From a virus (taxonomy: Duplodnaviria > Heunggongvirae > Uroviricota > Caudoviricetes): DNA of 20,062 nt. A program made the translations under genes and the position numbers. Position 1 is the first letter of the stretch; each line of letters starts with the position of its first letter. A model generated the notes under the pieces. The model searched no databases. It saw only the letters and a program-made list of their open reading frames with translations, and was not told the origin of the DNA. The DNA lies in IMG/VR virus record IMGVR_UViG_2778261543_000001; one strand, given 5' to 3'. Positions 325 through 20,062 of the stretch are shown here, one piece after another.

Positions 325-612
325 ATGACTGAACAAGAAATGCCGAGATACCAGTGCCACAAAAAAGTTCGCGCCCTGAAGATTGGCTCTATAGAACATA
401 AGCCAAACCCAGATCAGCCTGGTAAGTCTGGCTCTTCTAGTTATGGGGCAATTATTCATCCGGATGATAAGAAATACGCAGCATTTGATGTTAGCGCGGA
501 ATATATCTGTAAGCACCGACCAATGCCTGGAGGCTATTACGTTGTCTATGAGGATGGATATGAATCATATTCTCCTGCTGAGGTATTTGAGTCTGGATAT
601 TCAAAATTATAG
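325..612 (+). CDS. Hypothetical small phage protein (95 aa)
   Basis: ATG at 325 lies 4 nt after the previous stop, suggesting coupled translation in the same operon. Contains two Cys and a Tyr/Gly-rich C-terminal half; function not recognisable. Confidence 0.6.
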   Translation: MTEQEMPRYQCHKKVRALKIGSIEHKPNPDQPGKSGSSSYGAIIHPDDKKYAAFDVSAEYICKHRPMPGGYYVVYEDGYESYSPAEVFESGYSKL

Positions 613-824: not shown

Positions 825-1313
825 ATGGCAGCACCAAAGGGCAACCGATTTTGGGAGGCCCGCAGTAGTCATGGGCGAAATCCTAAATTCGAATCGCCTG
901 AGGCGCTGTGGGCTGCTTGTTGTGAATACTTCGAGTGGGTGGAAGCTAACCCGCTATGGGAGATGAAGGCGTTCTCGTATCAGGGTGAAGTGATACAAGA
1001 GCCTATCGCCAAGATGCGAGCGATGACCATTACCGGCCTCACTCTGTTCATTGATGTGACGCTTGAAACATGGCGCACGTATCGCCTGCGAGAAGATTTA
1101 TCTGAAGTCGTTACGCGAGCAGAGCAGGTCATCTACGACCAGAAATTCTCTGGCGCAGCCGCTGACCTTCTCAACGCTAATATCATCGCCCGTGATTTGG
1201 GCCTGAAAGAGCAGTCGCAAGTTGAAGACGTGACACCTGATAAGGGAGATCGCGATAAGCGGCGCTCTCGTATCAAGGAGCTATTCAACCGTGGAACTGG
1301 ACGCGATTCTTGA
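825..1313 (+). CDS. 3: Terminase small subunit, P22 gp3 type (162 aa)
   Basis: 162 aa, the same length as P22 gp3, and the sequence ([29 protein letters not shown]...) matches my recollection of P22 gp3 nearly residue for residue. Sits immediately upstream of and overlapping the large terminase gene. Confidence 0.9.
1092..1113. other. Candidate pac site (DNA packaging initiation sequence) inside the small terminase gene
   Basis: GAAGATTTATCTGAAGTCGTTA at 1092-1113, about 267 nt into gene 3. This matches the 22-bp P22 pac sequence as I recall it and its known location inside gene 3. The identification is from memory, not a computed alignment. Confidence 0.55.
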
Positions 1314-2790
1314 TAACCTGAGCGACGAAGAGCAAATCGAATTGCTCGAGCTACTCGAAGAAGAAGAGAACTACCGGAACACACACCTGCTATATGAATT
1401 TACGCCATACAGCAAACAGCGTGAGTTCATCGACGCCGGGCATGACTATCCAGAGCGCTGTTTTATGGCTGGTAACCAGCTTGGTAAGTCATTTACTGGT
1501 GCTGCTGAAGTCGCGTTTCACCTTACCGGGCGTTATCCGGGCACAAAAGGCTATCCTGCTGATGGTAAATATGGCGGTGAGTGGAAAGGTAAGCGTTTCT
1601 ATGAGCCTGTTGTCTTCTGGATTGGCGGCGAGACAAACGAGACTGTAACCAAAACGACTCAACGCATCCTGTGTGGTCGTATCGAAGAGAATGATGAGCC
1701 AGGCTACGGTTCCATACCTAAAGAAGACATCATTAGCTGGAAGAAGTCTCCTTTCTTTCCGAACCTTGTTGATCACCTTCTGGTTAAGCATCACACGGCT
1801 GATGGCGTTGAAGATGGCATTTCAATCTGCTACTTCAAGCCATACTCGCAAGGCCGCGCTCGCTGGCAGGGTGACACAATCCACGGCGTGTGGTTTGACG
1901 AAGAGCCACCATACAGCATTTATGGCGAAGGGCTTACCCGTACCAACAAATACGGGCAATTCTCAATTCTGACGTTTACCCCGCTGATGGGGATGTCTGA
2001 CGTTGTTACCAAGTTCCTGAAGAATCCCAGCAAGTCGCAGAAAGTGGTCAACATGACCATCTATGACGCTGAGCACTACACCGACGAGCAGAAAGAGCAA
2101 ATCATCGCATCCTATCCTGAGCATGAGAGAGAGGCGCGTGCTCGCGGTATTCCTACGATGGGTAGCGGGCGAATCTTCCAGATACCGGAAGAGACGATTA
2201 AGTGTCAGCCGTTCGAGTGTCCTGATCACTTCTACGTAATTGGCGGGATGGATTTTGGATGGGATCACCCGCAGGCGCAGGTTCAGCTTTGGTGGGATAA
2301 GGACGCAGACACAATCTACGTTTCACGCGTGTGGAAGGCGAAAGAAAAAACAGCCGTTCAGGCATGGGGAGCTGTTAAATCATGGGCGCATAAAGTGCCA
2401 ACAGCATGGCCTCATGACGGAAACCAGCACGAGAAGGGCGGCGGTGAGCAGCTCAAAGGGCAGTATGCAGATGCTGGTTTTATGATGTTGCAGGAGCATG
2501 CGACATGGCCTGATGGCGGTAATGCTGTTGAACCTGGCATCACTGAATTGCGCGACATGATGCTCAACGGTCGCTTCAAAGTATTCAACACCTGTGAGCC
2601 ATTCTTTGAGGAGTTTCGCCTCTATCACCGTGATGAAAACGGGAAGATCGTCAAGCTTAACGACGACGTGCTATCCGCCGTTCGCTATGCATACATGATG
2701 CGCCGCTTCGCAAAAATGATGCGCGACATCAAAAAACCAAAAGAGAAAAAGATACCAGCCCCAATCAGGCCCATCGCACGGAGAACTTAA
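1291..2790 (+). CDS. 2: Terminase large subunit (ATPase/nuclease), P22 gp2 type (499 aa)
   Basis: 499 aa as in P22 gp2, with a sequence that matches my recollection of it. Initiates at GTG (1291) with a strong AAGGAG site at 1275-1280. The start overlaps the 3' end of the small terminase gene by 23 nt in another frame. Confidence 0.9.
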
Positions 2791-4956
2791 ATGGCCGACG
2801 AAAACAGACTCAATTCCATTCTGTGTAAGTTTGACGCGGACTGGATGGCGAGCGATGAAGCCAGAACCGAGGCGACAAATGACCTGTATTTTAGCCGAGT
2901 GTCGCAATGGGATGACTGGCTATCAAACTACACTACCCTGCAATATCGCGGACAATTCGATGTTGTTCGCCCGGTGGTCAGGAAACTGGTCGCAGAGATG
3001 CGCCGTAACCCTATCGACGTTCTCTTCAGACCAAAAGACGGCGCTAATCCTGATGCAGCCGATGTGTTGATGGGGATGTATCGTACTGATATGCGCCATA
3101 ACACGGCAAAAATTGCCGTTAACGTTGGCGTTCGTGAGCAGATAGAGTCCGGCGTTGGTGCATGGCGTCTGGTCACGCAGTACGAAGACAACGATCCAAC
3201 AAGCAACAATCAGGTAATTCGACGCCTGCCAATTCATGAAGCCTGCTCACACGTCATATGGGACGCCAACAGCAAGCAGATGGATAAGAGCGACGCTAAG
3301 CACTGCACGGTGATTAACGCTTTGTCACGCAATGGCTGGAAAGAGTTCGCAGAGGATTACGGTATTGATCCGGATACCTTGCCATCTTTCCAGAATCCGA
3401 ACGATACATGGCTGTTTCCGTGGGTATCGAATGATGTCGTCTACGTCGCTGAGTATTACGAGGTCGAAGAGAAGAAAGAGAAAGTCTTCATCTACCGCGA
3501 TCCGCTGACAGGTGAGCCGGTCAGCTATTACCAGCAGGATATTAAAGACGTTATCGACGACCTGGCTAATCGTGGATTCATTAAGGTAGCAGAGCGCAAG
3601 GTGAAGCGTCGGCGTGTGTATAAGTCGATCATCACCTGCACGCAGATACTGAAAGACCGCGAGAAGATAGCCGGAGAGCATATTCCAATCGTTCCAGTGT
3701 ATGGAGAATGGTCATTCGCTGGTGACAAGGAGTGCTACGAGGGAGTGGTAAGGCTGACGAAAGACGGTCAACGCCTTCGTAACATGATCATGTCGTTCAA
3801 CGCCGATATTGTTGCTCGGTCACCGAAGAAGAAACCGACCTTCTTCCCTGAGCAAATCGAAGGCTACGAATACATGTACGGTGGAAATGATGACTATCCG
3901 TACTATCTGCAGAACAGGACCGATGAAAACGGTAACGACCTGCCGATTGGTCCAATCTCCTACATGGAAAACCCTGAAGTGCCGCAAGCCAACGCTTACA
4001 TGCTTGAGGCTGCCACCAACGCAGTGAAAGAGGTGGCTAGTCTTGGCGTGGATGCGCAGGCGGCAAATGGTCAGGTCGCTTTCGATACCGTCAATCAACT
4101 GAACATGCGGGCAGACCTTGAGACATACGTGTTTCAGGATAACCTGGCTACCGCAATGCGACGTGATGGCGAGATTTATGCCTCAATGGTCAACGATATT
4201 TATGACGTTCCTCGTCATGTGACGCTGACACTTGAAGATGGAAGCGAGAAAGACGTTCAACTCTATGCGCAAGTTGTCGATTATCAGTCCGGCAATGTGG
4301 TCACACTCAACGACATTCGCGGTCGCTATGAGTGCTATACGGACGTTGGGCCATCCTTCCAGAGCATGAAGGAACAGAACCGCGCAGAGATTCAGGAGTT
4401 ACTCACCAAGGTTCCGCAAGGTACTCCAGAGTTCCAGATGCTGATGCTGCAATACTTCACGCTGCTTGACGGTAAAGGCGTCGAGATGATGCGAGAGTAC
4501 GCGAACAAGCAACTGGTGATGATGGGACTGAAGAAACCAGAAACACCTGAAGAGATGGAGATGGTACAGCAGGCGCAACAGCAGCCGCAGCAGCCATCAG
4601 CAGAGCAAATTCAGGCGCAGGGTATCCTTCTGCAAGGTCAGGCTGAATTGCTCAAGGCAGAGAACCAACAGGCGCAGATTCAGGTTGAAGCTGCCAAGGT
4701 TGAAGCCCAAAACCAACTCAACGCCGCGAAGATTGCAGAAATCTTCAACAATATGGACCTCGACAAGCAGGCAGAACTGCGTGAGTACCTCAAGCTCGTA
4801 GGTCAATTCCAGCAACAGCGCAGCAAAGATGCTCGTGCTAACGCTGAGCTGCTTCTTAAAGATGCAGACCAGACTCATTCACAACGCATGGATTTCGCGA
4901 ATCTTATGCGTCAAGTTCAAATCCCCTCCGGCGGAGTAGCCGAGACACCTCAATAA
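2791..4956 (+). CDS. 1: Portal protein, P22 gp1 type (721 aa)
   Basis: 721 aa (P22 portal is about 725 aa), starting directly after the large terminase stop with a GGAGA site. The Gln/Ala-rich helical C-terminus ([18 protein letters not shown]...) is typical of the P22 portal barrel. Confidence 0.9.
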
Positions 4957-4969
4957 GAGAGAGTTAATC

Positions 4970-5881
4970 ATGGACCAAACCACCGACATTCAGGCTTCTG
5001 AAGAATTAACCATGCCCGGCAATCATGCAGCGGCATCTGCTGATGGCTTAGTTGTCGATAATGCCAACGACAACGCAGGTCAGGAAGAAGGCTTCGAGAT
5101 TGTCCTGAAAGACGATGAGAAACCAAAACAAGACCCGGCAACTAATGCTGAATTTGCCCGTCGCCGCATCGAACGCAAACGCCAGCGTGAGCTTGAGCAG
5201 CAGATGGAAGCGGTTAAGCGTGGAGAGTTGCCGGAGCACCTGCGGGTGAACCCTGAGTTACCAAAACAACCAGACCCTAACGATTATCTTTCCGAAGATG
5301 CACTGGCTAAGTACGACTATGACCAGAGCCGCGCACTGGCTGCCTTCCAGCAGGCAAACAGTGAATGGCAGATCAAGGCTATGGACGCAAGAAGCCAGGC
5401 TGTCGCCGAGCAGGGTCGCAAAACTCAGGAGTTCACCCAGCAATCAGCGCAATACGTCGAGGCAGCCCGTAAGCACTACGACGCAGCGGAAAAGCTCAAT
5501 ATCCCTGACTATCAGGAGAAAGAGGATGCATTCATGCAACTGGTGCCGCCAGCAGTCGGTGCCGACATCATGCGCCTCTTCCCGGAGAAATCCGCTGCTC
5601 TCATGTATCACCTTGGTGCTAATCCTGAGAAGACACGCCAGTTGCTGGCGATGGACGGGCAATCCGCGCTGATTGAACTCACTCGACTGTCAGAACGTTT
5701 AACTCTCAAGCCTCGAGCCAAGCCTGTTTCAGAAGCCCCGTTACCTGATGAACCCATTCAGGGACACGCTGTTGCTGCAAATATCTCTGCGATTGAAAAG
5801 CAGATGGAAGCGGCAGCAAACAAAGGGGATGTAGAGACGTACCGCAAGCTCAAGGCGCAACTGAATAAAGGAATTCGATAA
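4970..5881 (+). CDS. 8: Scaffolding protein, P22 gp8 type (303 aa)
   Basis: 303 aa, the same as P22 gp8; highly charged, helix-prone composition; lies between portal and coat. Its stop overlaps the coat start (TAATG). Confidence 0.85.
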
Positions 5882-7176
5882 TGGCATTAAATGAAGGTCA
5901 ACTGGTCACGTATGCTCTGGATGAAATCATCGAAACCGTCCAGAACCTGACGCCAATGGCGTCCAAAGTGACAAAATACACCCCTCCGGCAGAATCCATG
6001 CAACGTTCAAGCAACACCGTGTGGATGCCTGTTGAGCAGGAAGCGCCAACCCAGACTGGCTGGGATTTAACTGGCAACGCAACCGGGATTCTGGAACTCT
6101 CCGTGAAATGCAACATGGGCGATCCGGATAACGATTTCTTCGAGCTTCGTGCAGATGACCTGCGTGATGAGCGTTCTTACCGTCGCCGCATCCAGGCATC
6201 CGCCAAAAAACTGGCGAATAACATTGAGTCAGCGATTGCCAAACAGGCAACTGAAATGGGCTCGCTTGTTGTTCACGATACCCGAGCAATTGGTCCATCT
6301 ACTGGCCTGTCTGGCTGGGATTTTGTGTCTGATGCAGAGCGCCTGATGTTCTCCCGTGAGCTAAACCGCGATATGGGCATCAGTTACTTCCTGAACCCTG
6401 ACGATTACCGCAAAGCAGGCCGCAACCTGGTAGATGGTGACATCTTCGGGCGCGTTCCTGAAGAAGCGTATCGCAACGGTACTATTCAGCGTCAGATTGC
6501 TGGCTTTGATGAAATTCTTCGCTCACCGAAACTTCCGGCAGTTACCAAGTCAACCGCTACTGGTGTAACTGTTTCTGGTGCGCAGAAGTTTAAGCCGCAG
6601 GCATACACCCTTGATACCGATGGTAACAAAGAGAACGTCGACAACCGTGTTGCAACGGTGACCGTATCCTCCACCACCGGATTTAAGCGCGGCGACAAAA
6701 TCAGCTTCACTGGTGTGAAGTTCCTGTCTCAGATGGCGAAGAATGTGCTGACTGATGACGCGACTTTCTCAATCACCCGTGTGATCGATAGTACTCACAT
6801 CGAAATCACGCCGAAGCCGATTGCGCTGGATGACGCGTCACTGACAAAAGAAGAGAAGGCTTACGCGAATGTAAACACCTCTCTTGCTGATACCACACCG
6901 GTAAACGTTCTGAACGTGGCAACAACCACCGCTAACGTGTTCTGGGCTGATGACTCAATCCGCCTGCTGTCTCAGCCGATCCCGGTAACCCATGAACTGT
7001 TTGCTGGCATGAAAACGTCTTCCTTCAGCATTCCTGGTATTGGTGTTAACGGCATCTTCGCAACGCAGGGTGATATCAACACTCTGTCTGGTAAGTGCCG
7101 TATTGCTGTGTGGTATTCAGCATGTGCTGTACGACCAGAGGCAATTGGTGTTGGTCTGCCTAACCAGACCGCGTGA
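5881..7176 (+). CDS. 5: Major capsid (coat) protein, P22 gp5 family (431 aa), diverged from P22 itself
   Basis: 431 aa against 430 for P22 coat. N-terminus MALNEGQ..., the RADDLRDE motif and the C-terminal [13 protein letters not shown] agree with recalled P22 coat, but many internal substitutions are visible, so this is a different allele from the P22-identical terminase. Confidence 0.9.
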
Positions 7177-7184
7177 TAACCAGA

Positions 7185-7208
7185 GGGAGCTTCGGCTCCC
7201 TTTTCTAT
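7185..7208 (+). terminator. Rho-independent terminator or attenuator downstream of the coat gene
   Basis: GGGAGC-TTCG-GCTCCC hairpin (7185-7200) followed by TTTTCT, 9 nt after the coat stop codon. Confidence 0.6.
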
Positions 7209-7219
7209 TGGAGATACCA

Positions 7220-7825
7220 ATGAGCGTAATGATTTTTCAGGCTGGCGGAGATACCAAAATATGGGGACGCAAGCTGAAAACGAAAACCGTTGATCCTGAT
7301 GATGTAGCTGTGCACTTAGCAAATGGCTGGTATAAGCACCCTGACGATGTTCCTGATGATCCTCTTGTTGGTGATCAAATTGGGAGTGTTGGCGGAGGTG
7401 AAACTTCCCCAGTTGATATGGGCGAAGTGTCCGACGGTTATCACACTTTTAACGAGCTTTACGCTCACCGAGTGCGCCTCTTCTCATCGCTGATGCATGC
7501 TTACGCTGAGCTTTCGTGGTGGTCTCGCAAACACAGTGACGGTGAAGAGTGGGATGGCTGGATCATTGCTGGTATCACCACTCCAGAAGGCGAAATCACT
7601 TATCACCTACCTGTTGAAGAAATCGAGTTCCTTCCTGAAGGTACTGAGCTTGAGTTCGGGAAAGAGTGGGATGGTCATGAAGCAAATGATGTTCTTGGAC
7701 GACTCCTGAGTTTGCGTCCGGCTATTGCAGAGCCAGAGCCAGAGCCAGAGCCAGAAGAAAAACAGCGTAAAAAGCCTAGTCGAAAACCTAAGGCGGCAGC
7801 AGATGAACCTGACAACGAAGGGTGA
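7220..7825 (+). CDS. Acidic hypothetical protein (201 aa) with an (EP)4 repeat and a Lys/Arg-rich tail, inserted between coat and gp4
   Basis: ATG at 7220 with a GGAGA site 5 nt upstream. The ORF track begins this frame at 7040 inside the coat gene, but 7220 is the first start after the coat terminator. Protein is Asp/Glu-rich and ends ...[22 protein letters not shown].... Its 3' end overlaps the gp4 start by 23 nt. P22 has no gene here as far as I recall. Confidence 0.6.
7729..7752. repeat. Perfect tandem hexanucleotide repeat (AGAGCC)x4
   Basis: Read directly at 7729-7752. Encodes EPEPEPEP in the 7220 frame. The WLWLWLWL and GSGSGSGS stretches in antisense and alternate-frame ORFs are artefacts of this repeat. 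Confidence 0.95.
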
Positions 7826-8303
7826 TTTAGTCCTTGCGGCATTACGTAAGCTCGGTGTTGCATCAAATGCCACGTTAACCGATGTCGAACCGCAGTCTAT
7901 GGAAGACGGCGTCAACGACCTCGAAATGATGATGGCTGAATGGCTTGGCGGTGATGTGTCACCTGGTATCAACGTTGGCTACATTTTTGCTGATGCAGAT
8001 GTCGCTCCGGATCCGGGCGATGAGCACGGTTTATCAAATAACGCTATCAATGCCGTCATTTTCAACCTTGCCTGCCGCATTGCTCCAGATTATGCGCTGG
8101 AAGCGTCTGCAAAACTTATAACCACTGCCAGATACGGTAAAGAGCGACTCGTCAAACTGTCTGCAATGGATAGGGCAAAAGCCGCTAAATGTAAGTCCGG
8201 TTATCCAAACCGTATGCCTGTTGGTAGCGGTAACCAGTTGGCGAAGTGGAACGGTTGGAATTACTTCCACCGGAAGGAACCTTGCGATAACGGGAGCGAA
8301 TAA
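7803..8303 (+). CDS. 4: Head-completion / tail-adaptor protein, P22 gp4 type (166 aa)
   Basis: Starting at the ATG at 7803 gives 166 aa, the P22 gp4 length, and the sequence ([27 protein letters not shown]...[14 protein letters not shown]) matches recalled gp4. The ORF-track start at 7725 is an upstream extension running through the repeat. Confidence 0.85.
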
Positions 8304-9722
8304 ATGCCGATTCAGCAACTTCCGCTTATGAAAGGTGTCGGCAAAGACTTTCGAAACGCCGACTATATCGACTATCTGCCAGTGAATATGTTGGCTACAC
8401 CCAAAGAAATCCTTAACAGCAGCGGATATCTTCGCTCATTCCCGGGCATTGCCAAACGTTCCGACGTGAACGGTGTATCGCGCGGCGTCGAGTACAACAT
8501 GGCGCAGAATGCTGTTTATCGCGTGTGTGGCGGCAAGCTCTACAAAGGCGAAAGCGAAGTCGGTGACGTCGCCGGAAGTGGTCGTGTATCAATGGCGCAT
8601 GGTCGGACATCACAGGCAGTAGGCGTTAATGGTCAACTGGTCGAGTATCGCTATGATGGCACGGTTAAAACCGTCTCAAACTGGCCTACAGACAGCGGAT
8701 TCACGCAGTATGAGTTAGGTTCAGTCCGCGACATTACGCGCTTACGTGGGCGTTATGCGTGGTCAAAAGACGGCACTGATTCATGGTTTATCACTGACCT
8801 TGAAGACGAATCGCATCCTGACCGCTACAGCGCACAATATCGTGCTGAGTCTCAGCCTGACGGCATCATCGGCATCGGAACATGGCGAGACTTCATCGTC
8901 TGCTTTGGTTCATCGACGATTGAATATTTCTCCCTGACTGGCGCAACAACTGTTGGTGCTGCTTTGTATGTCGCACAGCCATCACTGATGGTGCAGAAAG
9001 GCATTGCCGGAACTTACTGCAAAACGCCATTCGCTGATTCGTATGCGTTTATCAGCAATCCGGCAACGGGTGCGCCGTCTGTATACATCATCGGATCCGG
9101 TCAGGTGTCACCAATCGCCAGCGCGAGCATTGAGAAAATTCTCCGCTCCTACACTGCTGATGAACTGGCTGATGGTGTGATGGAGTCTCTGCGATTTGAT
9201 GCGCATGAGCTGCTGATTATCCATCTTCCGCGCCATGTTCTGGTGTACGACGCATCTTCAAGCGCCAATGGTCCGCAATGGTGTGTACTGAAAACAGGCC
9301 TGTATGACGATGTGTATCGCGCTATCGACTTCATTTACGAAGGCAATCAGATAACGTGCGGCGATAAGCTGGAATCCGTGACCGGGAAATTGCAATTCGA
9401 TATCAGCAGCCAGTACGACAAGCAACAGGAACATCTGCTGTTTACTCCACTCTTCAAAGCAGATAACGCCAGAGTTTTCGACCTTGAGGTTGAATCGTCA
9501 ACTGGCGTTGCGCAGTACGCTGACCGCCTGTTCCTCTCTGCAACCACTGACGGCATCAATTACGGGCGTGAGCAGATGATTGAGCAGAATGAACCGTTCG
9601 TTTACGACAAACGCGTTTTGTGGAAGAAAGTAGGGCGCATCAGGAAAAACATTGGCTTCAAATTGCGCGTTATCACTAAGTCACCTGTCACTCTGTCTGG
9701 CTGCCAGATAAGGATTGAGTAA
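8304..9722 (+). CDS. 10: Tail hub / head-completion protein, P22 gp10 type (472 aa)
   Basis: 472 aa, the same as P22 gp10; it follows gp4 directly (TAA then ATG) with a GGGAG site. Assigned by size and conserved order. Confidence 0.85.
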
Positions 9723-10570
9723 TGGCTGATTCGAATCTTAATGTGCCGGTAATCATTCAGGCTACACGACTCGACACATCAGTCCTTCCGCGTAATATCT
9801 TCTCGCAGTCGTATCTGCTTTACGTTATCGCACAGGGAACTGATGTTGGTAACGTGGCTAACAAAGCCAACGAGGCCGGACAGGGCGCTTATGATGCACA
9901 GGTCAGGAACGATGAGCAGGATGTGATTCTGGTCGATCACGAAATTCGACTGGCATCGGCTGAAGCGAAGATACAGGACCACGAAACAAGGATCACTAAC
10001 GCAGAAGCGGCGATAGTCGGCCTTGATTCACGATTAACGACAGCAGAAAACGATATTGATTATCTGACTGATGAAGTTATCGCCATTCAAAACACGCTTT
10101 CAGACCATGAAACGCGCATCGATGCTCTGGAGTATGCCACTACTCGCAAGAAGTCAGAGGTTGTTTACTCTGGCGTATCTGTAACCATCCCGACAGCGCC
10201 GACCAACCTTGTTAGCCTGCTGAAAACGCTCACGCCGTCATCTGGCTCGTTGGCACCATTCTTCGACACTGTTAACAACAAGATGGTTGTGTTCAACGAG
10301 AACAAAACCTTGTTCTTCAAGCTGTCGATCGTCGGGACGTGGCCCAGCGGAACCGCCAACAGGTCAATGCAGCTAACCTTTTCCGGCTCTGTTCCTGACA
10401 CGTTGGTCAGCAGTCGTAATGCAGCGACAACAACCGATAACATCCTGTTAGCTACGTTCTTCAGCGTGGATAAAGACGGCTTTCTTGCCACAAATGGCAG
10501 CACGTTAACCATTCAGTCGAATGGTGCGGCGTTTACTGCCACAACCATCAAGATAATCGCGGAGCAGTAA
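9722..10570 (+). CDS. 26: Tail needle (cell-puncturing plug), P22 gp26 family, 282 aa with a C-terminal extension
   Basis: N-terminus [43 protein letters not shown]... matches the recalled gp10-binding N-terminal domain of P22 gp26. The centre carries repeated DHE(I/T)R heptad-type coiled-coil motifs. At 282 aa it is longer than P22's 233 aa, and the extra C-terminal part is Ser/Thr/Asn-rich, as in the knobbed needles of Sf6/HK620-type phages. Confidence 0.9.
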
Positions 10571-11025
10571 TGATTCAGTTCAAACCAACGCGAAACATCG
10601 ACCTGATAGAAGCAGTCGGAAATCACCCTGACATCATCGCCGGGAGCAACAACGGTGATGGATACGACTACAAACCTGATTGCCGTTACTTTGAGGTGAA
10701 CGTGCACGGTCAGTTTGGCGGCATTGTTTACTATCAGGAGATTCAGCCGCTGACATTCGATTGCCACGCCATGTACCTGCCAGAGATTCGCGGATTCAGC
10801 AAGGAAATCGGGCTGGCGTTCTGGCGATACATTCTGACTAACACCACCGTTCAGTGCGTCACATCGTTCGCCGCACGCAAATTCCGCCACGGGCAGATTT
10901 ACTGCGCAATGATTGGCCTTAAGCGTGTCGGAACCATCAAGAAATACTTCAAAGGCGTGGATGACGTGACTTTTTACAGCGCCACACGCGAAGAACTAAT
11001 CGACTTCCTGAATCACGGGAGATAG
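10570..11025 (+). CDS. Protein in the P22 gene-14 position (151 aa); probable assembly or ejection-associated protein
   Basis: Start overlaps the gp26 stop (TAATG) with a GGAG site. It occupies the slot between tail needle and gp7 that gene 14 fills in P22. I do not recognise the sequence, so the call is positional only. Confidence 0.45.
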   Translation: MIQFKPTRNIDLIEAVGNHPDIIAGSNNGDGYDYKPDCRYFEVNVHGQFGGIVYYQEIQPLTFDCHAMYLPEIRGFSKEIGLAFWRYILTNTTVQCVTSFAARKFRHGQIYCAMIGLKRVGTIKKYFKGVDDVTFYSATREELIDFLNHGR

Positions 11026-11027
11026 CC

Positions 11028-11720
11028 ATGTTATATGCATTTAAGCTGGGCAGAAAACTGCGCGGCGAGGAACCTTATTGCCCTGAAAAAGGCGGGAAAG
11101 GTGGCAGCTCTGATAAAAGCGCAAAGTATGCAGCAGAAGCTCAGAAGTATGCCGCAGACCTGCAAAATCAGCAGTGGCAGACGATCATGAAAAACCTTGC
11201 TCCGTTCACGCCGCTTGCGGAGCAGTATGTTAACCAGCTTCAGAATCTTTCCAGTTTAGAAGGTCAGGGGCAGGCACTTAATCAGTATTACAATTCTCAG
11301 CAGTATAAAGACCTTGCAGGTCAGGCGCGTTACCAGAGTCTTGCTGCTGCGGAGGCGACGGGTGGACTTGGTTCGACAGCCACAAGCAATCAACTGGCTA
11401 CGATCGCGCCGACACTCGGTCAGTCTTGGTTATCAAACCAGATGAGCAATTACAACAATCTGGCAAACGTTGGGCTTGGTGCGCTGCAAGGTCAGGCAAA
11501 CGCCGGGCAGACGTACGCCAACAACATGAGCAGCATTGCACAGCAAAGCGCAGCTCTTGCCGCTGCTAATGCCAACAAACCATCAAGTCTTCAGACAGCA
11601 ATTAGTGGCGGAACGTCTGGTGCGATTGCCGGTGCAGGTCTTGCCAGCCTTTTGGGGACATCAACACCTTGGGGCGCTGGCATTGGTGCTGGTATCGGAT
11701 TGCTTGGCTCGTTGTTTTAA
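11028..11720 (+). CDS. 7: Ejection (internal virion) protein, P22 gp7 type (230 aa)
   Basis: 230 aa (P22 gp7 about 229 aa) at the expected position. Gln/Ala/Asn-rich with a Gly-rich hydrophobic C-terminus (GAIAGAGLASLLG...GIGAGIGLLGSLF), consistent with a membrane-inserting ejection protein. Confidence 0.7.
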   Translation: MLYAFKLGRKLRGEEPYCPEKGGKGGSSDKSAKYAAEAQKYAADLQNQQWQTIMKNLAPFTPLAEQYVNQLQNLSSLEGQGQALNQYYNSQQYKDLAGQARYQSLAAAEATGGLGSTATSNQLATIAPTLGQSWLSNQMSNYNNLANVGLGALQGQANAGQTYANNMSSIAQQSAALAAANANKPSSLQTAISGGTSGAIAGAGLASLLGTSTPWGAGIGAGIGLLGSLF

Positions 11721-11729
11721 GGGGTAATC

Positions 11730-13136
11730 ATGGCTACTTGGCAAGGATCAAATGGCGGATTGTTAGCTGGTATCGGCGGCGTCAACTCAAACGCTCCGAG
11801 CGTAAATGACATCGGCAATACGCTTCAGCTTATCAGGCAGAACAATGATATTGAGCGTTCAGGCGCTAACAATGTTGGGCTGACTGCTTTGCAAGGTCTT
11901 TCAGGTATTGCAGGGGTGTTTCAGCAGGAAAAGCAGGCTCAGCGGCAGAAAGAATTTCAGCAGGCGTACGCTAATGCTTATGCGTCTGGTGATCGCGGTG
12001 CTTTGCGTCAGTTGGCTACTCAATATCCAGACCAGATTGAATCCGTTCGTAAAGGCATGGGATTCATTGATGAAGACCAGCGCAATTCTATCGGCACCTT
12101 AGCGGCTGGCGCACGCCTTGCGGCCTCGTCTCCAGAAGCAATGCAATCATGGCTGCAAAACAACGCCAATGAGCTGGCGCGCGTCGGTGTTGACCCTAAT
12201 AACGTTGCTCAGATGTATCAGCAGAATCCTTCAGGATTTGGTGAGTTTGTTGATCACCTTGGGATGGCTGCTCTTGGTCCGATTGATTACTTCAATGTTC
12301 AGGACAAGATGGCAGGTCGTGAGATTGACCGAGGCAGGCTGGCAGAGACAATCCGCAGCAATCAGGCTGGTGAAGCACTTCAGGCGAGAGGGCAAAACCT
12401 TTCCTATCAGTCAGCAATGACTGGGCACAATATCGCAGCACAACGCTTGGCTCTGGATCAGCAAGAGTTCGGGTTTAAGATGCAGCAAGCGCAGGAAAAG
12501 GCTCAGCAGTTGATTAGCGAAGCACCTAAGCTGTCAGTAAACATGGAAAAAGGCATCGAGACGGCTGTAAACAATGCCACAGCATCATCAAACTCAGCCA
12601 ATTCCATGAGTGCGCTTGCTCAACAGTTCAGAGCAGAAAAACCAACGACCGGTTTGTTCGGTAACGCACAGAACATGTTCGCAAAACTTACCGGAAGCGA
12701 TACGACATTGCGTGATTTGCGCATTCGCCAAAATGCCCTTGTTAACAGTCAGGTTCTTAAATTCCTACCTCCCGGCCCAGCAACGGATAAAGACGTTGAG
12801 ATTGTTCGACAGGGTGCGCCAACTGACATGGATAACCCTGAGACGGTCGCAAGATGGCTTGATGCAATGGCAAACCTTGAGCGACGAAACGCGCAGTTTA
12901 ATGAGTTTAAAGCTGAGTGGATGAGCGCGAATGGCAACCCTGGACAATCGCGTAATGGCGGTCAGATATTGGGGTTGGATGTTAAAAAAGGTGAATCATT
13001 GGGGAGTGCCGTTAAGCGGTATATGTCAATGAATACTGACGCAGCGCCAGCACAAGATTCGACACCTTCAGGAGAACCACGGAATCAGGTTGGATCATAT
13101 ACCTCAAAATCAGGCATTCAATTTACGGTGGAATGA
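11730..13136 (+). CDS. 20: Ejection protein, P22 gp20 type (468 aa)
   Basis: 468 aa (P22 gp20 about 471 aa), in the conserved 7-20-16 order, with an AAGGGG site. Its stop overlaps the gp16 start. Confidence 0.7.
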
Positions 13137-14977
13137 TGAAAGTAACTGCAAACGGTAAGACATTTACCTTTCCTGATGGTACGAGCACCGAAGATATTGG
13201 CACCGCCATTGATGAGTATTTTGCTGGTCAGGCTGTTCAGCAACAAACAGTTAATCAGGCCAATAATGCACCAACACGGGAAGAACCATCATTGATGCAA
13301 CAAGCTGGCGATTGGCTCACTGGTGGTCAAAGTGCAGGGCAAATTGCGGAACAGGCTGGTCGTGGTCTGGTAAACATACCATTTGACGTATTGCAGGGCG
13401 GCGCAAGTCTGATTAATGCAATCAGTCAGGGGCTTGGTGGACCCAAGGTTTTGGATGATGTTTATCGTCCAGTAGACAGACCGACAGACCCCTACGCTCA
13501 AGCTGGAGAAACAATTGGCGGGTATTTAGTTCCAGGAGTTGGAACGGCAGGAAGCATGGCTATTGGATCACTGGCAGAGGCCGCAAATCAGAAAGGTGAT
13601 TTCGCACAAAATGCAGCTAAAAATGCCGGAGTTAACCTTGCCGCTCAGGGTGTTCTTTCCGCAGCAGCAAAGGGAATAGGGCGTGGAATAACGGCTATAA
13701 AAGGTGATATTGCGCCAGAAGTGGCAAAGAAAATTGCCACATCAGAATCGATGGGCGTGACACCAATGACATCTGATGTTATCCCGCCGAAAAATGCTTT
13801 CACTCGCGGACTTACTCAGGATGCTGAGGGGGCTTTGCTCGGGACAGGCTCAAAGCGAGCGGAGCAATATGCAACGCGTAGTAAGCTGGTAAGCAATTAT
13901 TTTGACCGTTTTGGTGAGTACAACCCTGATGATGTGGTGAAATCTCTGACCACCACGTTAAGGGGACGGAAGGATGCCGCTGGCGCTGTTATCAATGACG
14001 TCACCAATAAAATGGGTAATGCCGCAGTTGATACCACAAATACCATGAATGCTCTGAATACAGCGATCGCAAGACAGGAACGGCTTGGGACGTCTGCCAA
14101 TCAAAGCCTGCTTACATCCTTGCGTAACCTACGTGAAGAATTAGCAAACCCTGCAACTGATTTGGATGTTACGTTTGATCTCTTGCGTCAGCACAGAACA
14201 GCATTTAGATCTAATGTTCAGGGAGATGCTATGGTCTTCCCCAACCAGGCAAAAGCAGCTACCAATATGGTAGAGAATGCAATGTCAAAAGACCTTCGTA
14301 ACGCAGTTGCAAAAAACCTCGGTGCATCAGACGCAGCAAAATACCTTAAAGCAAATTCCGATTATGCAAACGTTTATAATAAGGTTCTTAATAAAAACAT
14401 TGCTAACAAGCTCAACAAGGCAAGCAGTGAAGCCAGTCCTGAACTTATAAATACCGTTGTATTAAGCAGAAAACCATCTGACGTGAAACGAATCTGGAGC
14501 GCACTGGATGATAAAGGGAAAGATGCTATGCGTGCAGCTTACGTCAGCAAAATAGCGGAAAAGGCCGGTGACTCTCCAGCCAAGTTCATCACTGAAGTTA
14601 ATAAGCTGAAATCTCAGTCAGGTGGTGAAATTTACAACACTATTTTTTCTGGAAAGCACATGAAAGAGCTTGATGCTCTTCATGAAGTTCTACAGCAAAC
14701 AGCAAGGTCAGACACCGCAAATGTAGTAACTCAGACGGGGCAATCGCAAGCCAACAGGATAAGGACGATTGGCGCAACTGCGACTCTTGGCGTATCAATG
14801 GGGCTTGAGGCTGGTTTCGGTGCAATGATGCGCTTGTATGAATCCAAAGCAGCAAGGAATGCGCTCTTACGTCTGGCAAACACCAAAGCTGGAACGCCAG
14901 CTTATGAAAGAGCGCTAAATAATGCTGCAAATGCGATACGTCCTATACTTTCAAGCCAAATTACAGCAGAACAATAG
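13133..14977 (+). CDS. 16: Ejection protein, P22 gp16 type (614 aa)
   Basis: 614 aa (P22 gp16 about 609 aa). It is the last gene of the 7-20-16 block and starts in the ATGATG at 13133-13138, which contains the gp20 stop (TGA, 13134-13136). Confidence 0.7.
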
Positions 14978-15026
14978 ATAAATAATTAACTAAGCACATA
15001 ACTACTGACAGATAACCAACGCAACG

Positions 15027-15050
15027 ACCCAGCTTCGGCTGGTTTTTTTA
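15027..15050 (+). terminator. Rho-independent terminator between gp16 and the tailspike gene
   Basis: CCAGC-TTCG-GCTGG hairpin (15029-15042) followed by a run of seven T, about 50 nt after the gp16 stop. Confidence 0.6.
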
Positions 15051-15107
15051 TGCCCAAAATTCACCGTAGCCACGCTGCGGCGTTTCCTTGTATCTGGAGC
15101 AAATTAA

Positions 15108-17057
15108 ATGACAGACATTACAGCCAATGTTGTAATTGGGATGCCTTCGCAACTCTTCACTATGGCTCGTTCTTTTAAAGCCGTAGCCAATGGCAAAATT
15201 TATATCGGTAAAATTGACACTGACCCGGTAAATCCTGAAAACCAGATTCCGGTTTATATAGAGAACGAAGACGGTTCTCACGTTCCTGTTTCGCAACCAA
15301 TTATCATTAACGCTGCTGGTTATCCTGTATATAACGGGCAGATTGCCAAGTTCGTAACTGTGCAAGGCCATTCTATGGCTGTTTATGATGCATACGGTGC
15401 TCAGCAGTTTTATTTTCCGAATGTTCTGAAGTACGATCCTGACAGATTGCGACAGGATTTAGCGCTTCCAACAGGCGCTGAGCTTGTAGGCGTGCAACCA
15501 CAAGGAAATCTTTCGCAAGTCATTCAGTTTGTATCTCCAGAGCAGTTTGGCGCCATCGGAGATGGTACGGTTCATCCATTATCTGAGCGTTATGCGACTC
15601 TTGCAGCAGCGCAGGCTGTATACCCATTCGTAACATCTCTGACCCAGACAATTGACTGGGCAGCGTGTCAGGCGGCTGAGAACTATGCGCGTGGTAAAAC
15701 AGCGGTAAGATGCCCTTTCTACGCCAAGTATCATCTTGGCAACAATTATCTTGAGCTAAGCGAGAAAAGTAAATGGTATGGCAATGACAATCCCACTATA
15801 GATCGCCCATGCACCACTATCATACGAGAGGGAAATGCTGGCAGCTTCGGAAGAAATGCAATCGTCCGCGTTATGAGCTCTAGCGAAGCAGGAAGTTCGG
15901 ATGAATTTGTTCGCGGAGTCGTTTTCAAAGGTTTCTATTTATCTAGAAACCGCCCTCGTCGATTTAACAGCAAGTATGAAGGGTCAATAGGCTTTCATGT
16001 TAACTTTGCAATTAGAGCAGATATCGACGTGGCAATAAGCGGCTGTGAATATGGCCTTTTTGGCTATGGGTGCTGGGGACTGGTTGGTAGGGTTCGCGTG
16101 GATTCATGCCATAAATCTATTTGGCTGGATCCTGACACCGCAACTCCAGAGCATACCAACCCAGGCGGTTCAATAACGGCTCTTGATTTACGCGTAGAGG
16201 TGGATGCATGCGTCTACGGACCAGTGCTTCGACATGTGCAATATAGTAGAATTTCTGGATGGGTCGAAGGAATGCTTATTGATTCCGCAGTATACCCAAT
16301 CTATGACTACACCAACGAAACAGCTATAGCTATTACGGCATATGGATGCGATGGTTTAGATATAGAAAATCTAGGAATTGAAGCCTGGCAGGGAGTGATG
16401 GTTTACGCCAATTCCAGTACAGTATCCACTGGGATAAAATGGAATCAAGGAGCATTACTAACAAATACAACCGGTAAACACGGGCCATACCAGGCCATGG
16501 CAGCACTTACTGGCGCAACAGAATTGTTCACTTTACCATCGACTAACAACTCATATTTCTATGCAAAAAGTGGAGGCCTACTTAAGTTAAGAAATATGAC
16601 AGGAGATATGTCGACCGCTTCTTTCGCAAATACATTCCTTGTTACGGTTGATGCTGACTCTCGATTCTTAATGGAGAATACTGGCATTTACTTTGGAAGT
16701 AGTCGACTAATTGCCCCCGGCAATTGGGAGAATATTGAATTTATCAACGATAGATTCATGCAGAACTATATGGTGCCAGCTGGGTACTCATATGAAGGAC
16801 GCGGTATTTGTACTGCTAGCGCATGGTCAAACAAGACGATAAATGCCGGCGATGGTAGGGTTACACTTGATGCCCCTACTGGGTGGAAAATTATTGATTT
16901 TGTGGCCTACGTAATAACAAGCACCATATCACAAACTAGAAGCTACTCTCCTGTAGGAGTTGTATCCACATCAGATACGCGGATTATTCTGCAGACTGGT
17001 GTGGACACTACAGGTTTTTCTGTAACCTACAAACTAAGACTAAAGGTAATAAAGTAG
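15108..17057 (+). CDS. 9: Tailspike protein (649 aa): P22 gp9-like N-terminal head-binding domain fused to an unrecognised receptor-binding domain
   Basis: The first ~110 aa ([11 protein letters not shown]...[36 protein letters not shown]...[12 protein letters not shown]) match the recalled P22 gp9 head-binding domain. The rest has no resemblance to the P22 endorhamnosidase domain, though its Gly/Asn/Ser/Thr-rich repetitive composition would suit a beta-helix fold. TGGAG site upstream. Confidence 0.9.
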
Positions 17058-17061
17058 AGTG

Positions 17062-17086
17062 AAAGCCCCTTACGGGGCTTTTTTAT
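17062..17086. terminator. Terminator hairpin between the convergent tailspike and gtrC-like genes
   Basis: AAAGCCCC-TTAC-GGGGCTTT hairpin (17062-17081) with a T-run to 17086, 5 nt after the tailspike stop and overlapping the stop of the - strand gene. The T-tract follows only on the + strand, so termination of the minus-strand gtr transcript is less certain. Confidence 0.6.
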
Positions 17087-18603
17087 ATGCCTGTTTTTAT
17101 TCTGTGGTTGTAAACCATTATTATCATGCCATTGTAACTTAGAACTTCATCAGGACTGCCAATAGTAGCCTCGACTCCTTTCCTACATAAATCTATGTCT
17201 GCGCACTGATCTCCAGTATTGCCCTTCCTTAAAGCTATGAACTGTCGTTCAGGTTTTGATTCTACAAATTCATTTGTGTGCCAAAACTTCATTGTTTGAA
17301 CGCGGGCATCCTTGAAGTTGATAACCCCTGTTTTTTTATGAAAGTAAACAGGGGTTATATGTATGTCTCCGCCAGACAGCCAATTCACGCCCATAGACAT
17401 CCCCCAAAAACTACCATATCCGTAAGTAAGATCATGATGCTTAAGGAAGTCTATATATGAATTGACAGGGTTATCGTTAAGCTTGTAGCGAATATTCATT
17501 AATGAGTAGCCATAAATGCACGTAGCAAAACTTAACAGCAAAGGAATTACTAATAATATAGCTCGTTTAGAAGATGCTGCTACTGACAATAGCACGATCA
17601 CCATTGGGGCAATATTAAGATAAAATCTTTGATGGGGAGTTTGATCACCTATTATTGAAGATGAGTATATTCCTGCTATAGACATGATTGAAAATATTGC
17701 AATGTAGCGAGCCGCACCGCCTCGCTTTATGCATATGAACACGGCATATAAGCATGTAATAGACCATGTAAAAAATATTGCATACCTGAAATACTCGTTG
17801 CCTATATTCGTTATTGGCAACATCTTGGCTGTGATATCAACAGCAAGCCTGGCATTATCAAGCATAACATCAAAAGGTGCCAAGTGGAAAGAGTGAACAG
17901 GAAGACCTATAATCTTTTGAATTACATTTGAGAAAGCCAATGCAAAAAACACAAAGTATATAATGAAATTTCTTTTTGTGGTTTTCTCAAAAACGATGAT
18001 AGCACACTCAGTAATTATCATTGGTAGGAAAAAAGCCGCCAGAAGCCATGGATCAGACGCGCTCGCTAGCAGCGAAATCAAAGAGCATACAAACGGTATA
18101 AATATGTTTTTGCTTTTTAAGCTTAACACAAACAAAGAAAAAACTACGAACCCATACGCATTAGTAGAGTTATGCGAAAATGGGTGTGAGAAATAACCGT
18201 GTCTGTATAGGTCTGGAGAAACAAATGTTATGCATATTAAAGCAATTAAAGCTAGATAGTTACCTGAACATGACCTAACCATTTCTGTTACGCATGCTGT
18301 GATAACAAAAATAAATATTGCGCTTGATATCACTAATGGCAACAGACCATCATCACCGAGCAGTAAAAACAAAGCAAAGTTTACTGGATAAACTGTAAAA
18401 TACCAGTTATCAAATGTTGGTTGCCATTGAGTAAAAGAACTCCATCCACTGTCCAGGAATGCCCTCCAAACTATTGGGCTATTGGCGGCATCTGCATCCC
18501 CTGACCATAAGTAGCTGTGTCGCGATGTAAGATAAAGAGACACGCAAAAAGATGCGAGATATAAAAAACACCAAAAAGCTCTGCTATCAGATATCCTATT
18601 CAT
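17083..18603 (-). CDS. GtrC-like serotype-specific O-antigen glucosyltransferase (polytopic inner-membrane protein, 506 aa); specificity unknown
   Basis: Third gene of a gtrA-gtrB-gtrX arrangement, with its start overlapping the gtrB stop (ATGA). The protein is very hydrophobic with many predicted membrane spans and a ~130-aa hydrophilic C-terminal domain. AT-rich codon usage. I do not recognise it as a specific named Gtr type. Confidence 0.7.
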
Positions 18604-19523
18604 GATTTACTAACACCCTTTAATATATAACGAGGCCTATTTTTGGACTCAACATATATCCTGCCAATGTACTCACCAAGAACGCCAATGCCAATCAATT
18701 GAACCCCGCCAAGGAACAGAATAGAGACAAGCAGGGATGGATATCCACGCACAGCATTGCCGAAGGCCAGTGTGTCGATAATCATCCAAGCACCGTACAG
18801 AAACGCCACTCCAGCTACGAACAGGCCAATGTAAGTCCACATGCGCAACGGGAAAGTAGAGAAGCTTGTGATCCCCTCAAGTGCCAGGTTCCACAGTTTC
18901 CATCCATTAAATTTAGTACTGCCTGCCACTCGTTCTGCGCGTGCATACTCGACAACATCTGTGCGACCGCCAACCCAACTCAGCACACCTTTCATAAAAA
19001 GGTTGCGCTCTGGCATAAGCTTAATGTTTTCGACAACTTCACGGCTCATTAACCGGAAATCGCCAACGTTTTCTTCTATCTTTGGGTTGCTGATTTTGTT
19101 ATGAAGCTTATAGAACCACTCAGCAGATTTACGTTTTAGTCGGCTGTCAGTTGAGCGATCAGAGCGCTTAGCAAGAACCATATCCGCGCCGGCCTGCCAC
19201 TTCTCAATAAGATGAGGGATGACTTCAATCGGGTCCTGCAGGTCAACGTCAATTGGAATTACAGCCTCTCCGGTTGCATGTTCTAACCCTGCAAACAATG
19301 CTGGTTCTTTACCAAAGTTGCGTGTAAATGACAGTGGAACAACCAGCGGGTCTGAAACAGCCAGAGCATTAATAATTGACTCCGTAGCGTCTTTACTTCC
19401 GTCATTTATGAATACAATTTCCACTTCATATGGCTTCAACTCTTCGAATTCACGTACCGTTTTATAGAAAATTGGTATCGCTTCTTCTTCATTGAGGACA
19501 GGAACAACCAGAGATATCTTCAT
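18600..19523 (-). CDS. gtrB: Bactoprenol glucosyltransferase GtrB (GT2 family, 307 aa)
   Basis: N-terminal GT2 fold signature ([14 protein letters not shown]...INDGSKD...) with a DxD-type motif (PIDVDLQDP) and two C-terminal hydrophobic helices, as in GtrB. Flanked by gtrA and the gtrC-like gene with ATGA overlaps. Confidence 0.9.
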
Positions 19524-19882
19524 TTCGCATTCCTAAAGACAATGAGCTTTGAATAGACGAAACCGCACACCAGGCTGATGGCGGAGAAAGTGATAAGGGT
19601 GACCATTGGAGGAAGTGCACATCTATCAGCAGCCCATCCAATAGTTGCACTCAGTGTTCCCATGAACCCGACATATAACATGTAGCGCATCGTTGTAGTT
19701 GATGCTTTGAATGTGAATTTTGCATTCGCGAAGAAGCTAAAACTCACAGCCACAACAAAACCTGCGAAGTTTGCCAGAGCCTGATTGGTATGCGCGGCAT
19801 AGATACATACACCAAAAACCACCCAGTGTATAAGTGTGTTCAGCACGCCAATCGAGGTGTACTTTGCAAATAGCTTTAACAT
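19520..19882 (-). CDS. gtrA: GtrA, small membrane protein (flippase for undecaprenyl-phosphate glucose), 120 aa
   Basis: 120 aa with four hydrophobic segments, first gene of the operon, typical GtrA size and position. Confidence 0.85.
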
Positions 19883-19920
19883 TTCTTCTATCAGCTAATA
19901 ATCAAAGGCATGAAGTCTAT

Positions 19921-20062
19921 TGGATTTGCCCCTATATTTCCAGACACCTGTTATCACTTAACCCATTACTGGCTTGCTGCCGTAGATATTCCCGTGGCGA
20001 GCGATAACCCAGTGCACTATGCGGATGCCATTCGTTATAATGCTCGAACGCCTCTGCAAGGT
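19921..20062 (-). mobile_element. IS2 insertion sequence, right terminal inverted repeat plus 3' end of the transposase gene; truncated by the window edge
   Basis: 19921-19961 (TGGATTTGCCCCTATATTTCCAGACACCTGTTATCACTTAA) matches the IS2 right inverted repeat as I recall it, with one mismatch. The adjoining minus-strand reading frame ends in a typical IS2 transposase C-terminus. Confidence 0.8.
19932..20062 (-). CDS. insD: IS2 transposase (orfB/InsD) C-terminal fragment; 5' part lies outside the window
   Basis: Minus-strand translation from the window edge reads ...[42 protein letters not shown], with the stop at 19932-19934. This is the conserved IS3-family integrase-fold C-terminus and matches the recalled IS2 InsD tail. 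Confidence 0.75.

Follow-up and report, generated by a model that had tools for sequence, protein, structure and literature searches.

The 22 bp at positions 1092-1113 of the window (by which we mean the whole 20,062-bp stretch of DNA that was analysed) are very probably a packaging-initiation (pac) site of P22 specificity, and it is highly likely that they form the genuine pac site of a P22-like prophage late region, working as in P22. The window is one entire draft contig (NLNW01000079.1, GCA_002229875.1) and holds late genes only. It is the late region of a P22-like (Lederbergvirus-type) prophage, a common type, and the host of this prophage was most probably Escherichia coli or a close relative. 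Nothing about the pac site, the protein that reads it or the way packaging proceeds is new; P22 pac, gp3 and headful packaging are textbook P22 biology. The value of the present analysis is in annotation and prediction, and it opens no new question. To the first-pass annotation of this DNA it adds two points. Lateral transduction, absent from that annotation, is in our reading the chief outcome to be predicted, and an allelic segment of 189 bp sets the element apart from several of its nearest relatives.

The plus-strand sequence at 1092-1113, GAAGATTTATCTGAAGTCGTTA, agrees at 22 of 22 bases with the pac misc_feature at bases 4-25 of the RefSeq P22 genome (NC_002371.2). That feature carries the label 'packaging recognition by terminase (pac) site', and a 34-mer alignment maps it onto 1092-1113. 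The same 22-mer is quoted in the literature as the P22 pac site, with AAGATTTATCTG as its 12-bp core (PMC11447400, PMC11226127, PMC9611059). Within the 489 nt of gene 3 it covers nt 268-289, the placement also stated for P22 and phage L (PMC8022706). It is thus close to mid-gene and on the coding strand, with gene 2 downstream, so that packaging would run toward gene 2. The first-pass annotation had located a P22-type pac here, inside the small terminase gene, and this is borne out in sequence, position and orientation. Since the match to the published site is complete, all the bases described as critical in P22 mutants, as far as those data are quoted second-hand, are present, with no mismatch at any of them. 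The 22-mer is single-copy in the window when both strands are searched with up to three mismatches permitted, and none of 100 dinucleotide-preserving shuffles of the window yielded a match. The pseudo-pac consensus AASRYWWHYYTKVVVTC, applied as AA[GC][AG][TC][AT][AT][ATC][TC][TC]T[GT][ACG][ACG][ACG]TC, is matched at 1093-1109 and nowhere else, and the window search found no second pac or pseudo-pac site. Scans of the window for tRNAs and Rfam families gave no RNA features.

Gene 3 (825-1313, plus strand), which contains pac, encodes the 162-aa small terminase (TerS, gp3). Its product is identical to P22 gp3 at all 162 residues and is the only protein in the window identical to its P22 counterpart. 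It matches Pfam GP3_package (E=3.5e-33) and the crystal structure of the P22 gp3 nonamer (PDB 3P9A, E=1.3e-108). The 489 nt of the gene show 8 differences from P22 (98.4% identity), every one synonymous. None falls within the 22 bp, the nearest being 3 nt upstream and 11 nt downstream. Because the whole gene is this close to P22 gene 3, the match of the 22-mer is due to homology and not to chance. The element thus encodes, together with pac, the cognate small terminase of P22 specificity and not the IME10 allele described below. The prediction of headful packaging with P22 specificity, made in the first-pass annotation, is supported by these comparisons, the inference being of the kind published for phage L (PMC8022706).

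One base of pac bears on transduction. In P22 HT105/1 int-201 (MN161573.1, bases 2-35) the G at pac position 4 is replaced by A, and phage ER25 has the identical replacement in a pac that is otherwise as in the window. This G to A change gives gp3 D91N, so that a single base alters both the site and its reader. The window has G at the corresponding position (1095), and its gp3 is wild type at D91; an altered gp3 such as D91N, by which high-transducing (HT) variants are recognized, was not found. The wild-type base and residue therefore give no reason to predict unusually high generalised transduction.

Gene 2 (1291-2790, plus strand) overlaps gene 3 and encodes the partner large terminase (TerL, gp2) of 499 aa. 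The protein has the gp3-binding N-terminus (aa 1-58), the ATPase domain and the nuclease domain. Full-length Pfam matches were obtained for Terminase_6N (aa 57-302) and Terminase_6C (aa 318-470), and the nuclease domain matched the P22 nuclease domain structure (PDB 4DKW). The first-pass annotation had called both terminases P22-identical, which holds for gp3 but not for gp2. The latter is 92.6% identical to P22 gp2 overall, and the divergence is very unevenly spread: aa 1-317, which include the gp3-binding region and the ATPase domain, show a single substitution (A38T), whereas aa 318-499, the nuclease domain, are about 81% identical. The DNA shows the same break, with 46 differences in the 950 nt of gene 2 before position 2240 (4.8%) and 152 in the 550 nt after it (27.6%). 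This mosaic junction (at about 2240, gp2 residue ~317) falls where, by Pfam, the ATPase domain gives way to the nuclease domain.

A similar pattern is seen in 80 IMG/VR contigs with an identical gp3. Gene 3 and the 5' 950 nt of gene 2 in these contigs match the window and P22 alike, at 94-99% identity, and the remaining 550 nt of gene 2 are of at least three classes. The window type is the majority, the P22 type is represented by one contig, and a third class, about 79% identical, comprises eight contigs; for this third class no nucleotide similarity to the window or P22 was detectable in the 5' region of the portal gene. These classes imply that pac is inherited as a unit with gp3 and the ATPase domain of TerL, and that the unit is recombined onto differing nuclease-domain and portal modules. 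Mosaicism of P22-like phages had reportedly been described already, by Casjens and Thuman-Commike in 2011 and by Leavitt et al. in 2013. Two isolated E. coli phages, APC_JM3.2 and JEP4, share the pac 34-mer with the window. APC_JM3.2 is 97.8% identical to it across both terminase genes, from which it follows that a mosaic terminase of the window type works in a viable phage.

The 13 virion genes (3, 2, 1, 8, 5, 4, 10, 26, 14, 7, 20, 16 and 9) are intact open reading frames in P22 order, all of those described here lying on the plus strand. Terminases aside, their products are 48-93% identical to those of P22 and nearest to E. coli P22-like phages. The 721-aa portal protein (2791-4956; Pfam P22_portal, E=5.9e-162) is 77.9% identical to P22 gp1, the scaffolding protein (4970-5881; Pfam Phage-scaffold) 84.9% identical to gp8, and the coat protein (5881-7176; Pfam P22_CoatProtein) 72.9% identical to gp5. 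Genes for head completion, the needle and ejection, which Pfam assigns as homologues of 4, 10, 26, 14, 7, 20 and 16, follow uninterrupted at 7803-14977; gp4 and gp20 are 60% and 48% identical to their P22 counterparts. Two local departures from P22 occur here. Between the coat gene and gene 4 lies a 201-aa open reading frame with a WDGH domain (PF25311; 7220-7825, plus strand), where P22 has the unrelated 69-aa ORF69. The tail needle, the gp26 homologue (9722-10570, plus strand), has 282 aa and a C-terminal knob domain of the Sf6 type, unlike the 233-aa needle of P22.

The 649-aa tailspike gene (15108-17057, plus strand) encodes an N-terminal Head_binding domain (Pfam, aa 1-113), which is the only part that aligns to P22 gp9 (76% identity). 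For the remainder (aa ~115-649, 15450-17057) no Pfam family was found and no near nucleotide match in the phage and complete E. coli genome collections. The tailspike thus appears to combine a head-binding domain of P22 type with a receptor-binding part of unrelated sequence. O-antigen modification genes in a gtrC-gtrB-gtrA arrangement follow on the minus strand (17083-19882), where packaging from pac would reach them after the virion genes. GtrA has a PHROG match (E=6e-69) and GtrB is a family 2 glycosyltransferase; the 506-aa protein in the gtrC position (17083-18603, minus strand) gave no Pfam family and, in the same two collections, no near nucleotide match.

Two further stretches differ from P22 in gene content. 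The immI region (sieA, mnt, arc, ant) is absent between gene 16 and the tailspike gene, where there are only about 130 bp (14978-15107). Within this interval, 14996-15076 is 96% identical to a P22 stretch made up of the final 13 nt of ant and the sequence preceding gene 9. The arrangement suggests either a deletion of immI or a recombination joint at the conserved ant/gene 9 boundary. Upstream of gene 3, 317-642 is an insertion relative to both P22 and the prophage of E. coli STEC379, in which the spacing between ORF80 and gene 3 is 35 bp. The insertion contains a 95-aa open reading frame (325-612, plus strand), possibly a truncated gene, since its match to the 182-position family phrog_11049 is confined to positions 1-94.

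The contig begins and stops in insertion-sequence termini. The first 55 bp (1-55), 23 bp upstream of ORF80, are the terminus of an IS5-family (ISKpn26-like) element; they are 100% identical to sequence adjoining an ISKpn26-family transposase gene and occur in 1,828 E. coli genomes, with 5,512 places in all. The last 142 bp (19921-20062), 38 bp upstream of the gtrA start, are the terminus of an IS3-family element, with 100% matches annotated as IS3 family transposase in 4,363 of 5,426 E. coli genomes. The alignment of related prophages to the window ends at 19920, and the IS3-family end occupies the region where the gtr promoter would be expected. It is these IS-end repeats that account for the thousands of E. 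coli matches to the window, and they are probably also what broke the contig.

Is the prophage, then, still a working one? The intact pac could instead lie in a defective remnant, in which an IS insertion or deletion has cut the late block off from the early and lysis genes, so that its own phage no longer uses it; we regard this as possible, though less likely than not. The contig ends are indeed IS ends of two different families, no early, lysis or integrase gene is visible in the window, immI is missing, and the frame at 325-612 covers only the first half of its family. Against this, the 13 virion genes run uninterrupted over about 16 kb, and the differences in the gp3 gene are all synonymous. 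Comparison with the STEC379 prophage places both IS ends in intergenic positions, one between a lysis-region accessory gene and ORF80 and the other between gtrA and int, which is the picture expected if simple insertions had entered a prophage that is intact elsewhere. Draft contigs, moreover, routinely break at IS copies, and the break is uninformative about deletion. The IS-bounded contig covers late genes only, and the early, lysis and integration regions of the prophage may be intact, interrupted or lost.

Taken together, the roughly 16 kb of intact reading frames and the absence of any but synonymous drift in gene 3 speak for function in the recent past, as the first-pass annotation had suggested. 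The IS5-family end lies within the expected late operon and could reduce terminase expression, and we put the chance that the prophage is currently inducible at roughly even. Even a remnant's pac could serve another phage in trans, if that phage is co-resident or superinfects and has a P22-type gp3; it would then package the block and adjacent host DNA; in P22, a pac placed on a plasmid or in the chromosome suffices to direct packaging (PMC11260489).

Comparison with close relatives shows that gene 3 exists in two alleles. In phages IME10, Dewey, Louie and Bas106 (CurroJimenez_Bas106), gene 2 is nearly identical to that of the window, and these phages agree with it in genome type and in the genus of the host. 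In gene 3, nt 1-115 are 100% and nt 305-489 are 98.4% identical to the window. Between these flanks, however, nt 116-304 (940-1128 of the window, plus strand, encoding aa 39-102 and including pac) differ at 70 of 189 positions (63% identity). The IME10-type gp3 has 29 amino-acid changes, every one within aa 39-102, and its pac equivalent, GAAGGTTTTTCTGACGTCACAT, has 7 mismatches in 22. The P22 allele is also that of APC_JM3.2, JEP4 and the STEC379 prophage. Among 5,426 complete E. coli genomes the P22-type 34-mer was found in 110 and the IME10-type in 141, so that the two alleles are of similar frequency; among the matches listed, both fall within a gene annotated as a DNA-packaging protein.

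Whether pac is constrained as DNA was examined in both alleles. The P22-allele set comprised 82 gene 3 sequences (80 IMG/VR contigs, P22 and the window), of which 62 are distinct and which encode essentially the same protein. It has 53 variable positions, none of them in gene nt 266-299. In 80 contigs with the IME10 allele (49 distinct sequences), the pac-equivalent 22-mer is invariant and lies within the second-longest invariant run. Seven third-codon positions fall in pac and none varies in either set; gene-wide, 30% of third positions are variable in the P22 allele and 22% in the IME10 allele. The probability of such invariance is about 0.08 and about 0.17 for the two alleles separately, which is weak, and about 0.013 jointly. 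A synonymous-site test on one allele as proof of constraint was rejected, as it is not significant alone (p about 0.08). The two alleles combined give modest support for a DNA-level constraint on pac.

These figures bear on the view that the 22 bases are conserved only as the codons for gp3 E90-T97, and that packaging starts elsewhere or has another specificity conferred by the divergent half of gp2. The sequence is of course coding, 14.5% of the 22-bp windows in gene 3 are invariant anyway, and the gp2 nuclease domain is only about 81% identical to that of P22. Such a view is nevertheless very improbable. Besides the lack of any change at the seven third-codon positions among 62 and 49 distinct sequences of two alleles, the embedded site changes together with the central part of gp3 in the IME10 allele. 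P22 specificity has been assigned to gp3 and not to the gp2 nuclease domain (PMC9611059). Above all, four synonymous changes in the P22 pac, which leave gp3 wild type, attenuate self-packaging (PMC11260489). In this pac-wobble mutant AAGATTTATCTG is converted to AGGACTTGTCGG, and transducing particles make up about 80% of the yield (PMC11260489). We take these P22 synonymous-mutant experiments to be the decisive evidence for pac function. That the site is a chance pac-like sequence can be dismissed: pseudo-pac sites do exist in host genomes (PMC11226127), but a 22/22 match, never reproduced in the shuffles, stands at the homologous position of a gene nearly identical to that of P22.

With 1092-1113 read as the genuine pac, we infer that the segment 940-1128 determines packaging specificity, and the IME10 allele may be presumed to have a different one. 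It is somewhat more probable than otherwise that the segment is a self-contained, exchangeable specificity cassette, holding both the part of gp3 that chooses the DNA and its own target site. If so, one short recombination in the near-identical flanks would switch specificity without ever separating reader and site, and a phage with one allele would be unable to package the genome, or the lateral-transduction substrates, of a phage with the other. Casjens et al. in 1992 and Leavitt et al. in 2013 reportedly compared P22 with relatives of different pac specificity, and much the same was probably concluded then. The proposal thus probably restates an earlier conclusion and offers little that is new even if true. 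Beyond the two alleles, 60 more distant gp3 homologues from many genera (42-92% identity) were compared, and their DNA at the pac position diverges along with the protein. A scan of the genome contigs found the exact site in none of the 60; these homologues bear on the divergence of the site and not on its function. The homologues in four prophages, of Citrobacter, Erwinia, Proteus and Xenorhabdus (70-92% identity), have 19-21 of the 22 pac bases, and most others retain only the GAAGATTT or GAAGGTTT start of pac. The site thus seems to decay in step with the residues encoded there.

Because both the site and gp3 are identical to those of P22, a P22-like mechanism can be proposed. The late operon would express gp3 (825-1313) and gp2 (1291-2790), and a gp3 nonamer, with gp2 bound through its C-terminal tail, would recognize the asymmetric 22-bp site within its own gene, on concatemeric or still-integrated DNA. 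In P22, residues 140-162 at the gp3 C-terminus bind gp2 residues 1-58, and specific binding of purified gp3 to pac DNA was not reproduced in vitro (PMC9611059). The recognition step consequently rests on genetics. The gp2 nuclease domain would then cut within about 60 bp on either side of pac. The predicted zone for series-initiation cuts, taken from P22, where these fall in a region of roughly 120 bp around pac (PMC11226127, PMC11260489), is the stretch of about 120 bp centred on pac at 1043-1162. This stretch differs from P22 at just three positions (gene nt 255, 265 and 300), all synonymous.

DNA would next be pumped unidirectionally into procapsids, toward the 3' end of gene 3 and along the plus strand, until a headful slightly larger than one genome is reached. 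Further headfuls would be filled processively, giving circularly permuted, terminally redundant virion DNA. Packaging in P22 is likewise unidirectional and runs to the 3' side of terS, each headful measuring about 44 kb (PMC8575938). Cut positions and headful size may differ from those of P22, since identity to P22 is only about 81% for the gp2 nuclease domain and 78% for the portal. Use of the site in the host strain, the cut zone, the headful size and transduction are all matters that we infer from P22.

Packaging from 1092 would take up about 19 kb of phage DNA first (1092 to 20062) and then the DNA beyond gtrA. Were packaging to begin before excision, host DNA past gtrA and the prophage end would be mobilized by lateral transduction; in the STEC379 prophage gtrA is followed by an integrase gene, tRNA-Arg and then host genes. 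Lateral transduction from unexcised P22 prophages extends over more than 300 kb and is, in P22, the more frequent and better documented outcome (PMC8575938). Generalised transduction requires pseudo-pac sites somewhere in the host's own DNA (PMC11226127, PMC11260489). Provided that excision is as late as in P22, the flank beyond gtrA would be expected to move by lateral transduction far more often than by generalised transduction.

In practical terms, pac marks where the ends of virion DNA would map and sets the direction in which host DNA would be mobilized, beyond gtrA and via the IS element and prophage end. The predicted packaging specificity is common to the element, P22 and about 2% of complete E. 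coli genomes, so that such phages could package each other's DNA, or the present locus in trans.

Among known systems, the best overall relatives are APC_JM3.2, IME10, Dewey, Louie, Bas106 and the STEC379 prophage (95-98% identity), all from E. coli and none a Salmonella phage, and no record spans more than 77% of the window. Gally, a P22-like podovirus prophage of E. coli LF82, was considered as direct evidence for a P22-type pac in E. coli and rejected, because its terminase is of the Sf6 type, with an unrelated TerS (140 aa) and a TerL of the PBSX family; it serves as an analogy only. Gally has a pac inside terS, and both its headful packaging in steps of about 40 kb and its lateral transduction of more than 200 kb have been measured (PMC9928086). 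APC_JM3.2, JEP4 and STEC379-type prophages have the pac 34-mer and the mosaic terminase of the window and match its virion module at 95-97%, but the receptor part of the tailspike and the gene in the gtrC position are unmatched in them. In the STEC379 prophage pac is exact, and gene 3 differs from that of the window at just five nucleotides; unlike the window, it has an immI-like region and no IS at either of the positions where the window has IS ends. P22 itself, a Salmonella phage (NC_002371.2/AF217253), shares the gene order 3-2-1-8-5-4-10-26-14-7-20-16-9-gtrCBA with the window, and differs in the receptor domain of the tailspike, in the protein at the gtrC position and in having immI. P22 specificity of packaging is a real distinction between the window and several of its closest relatives.
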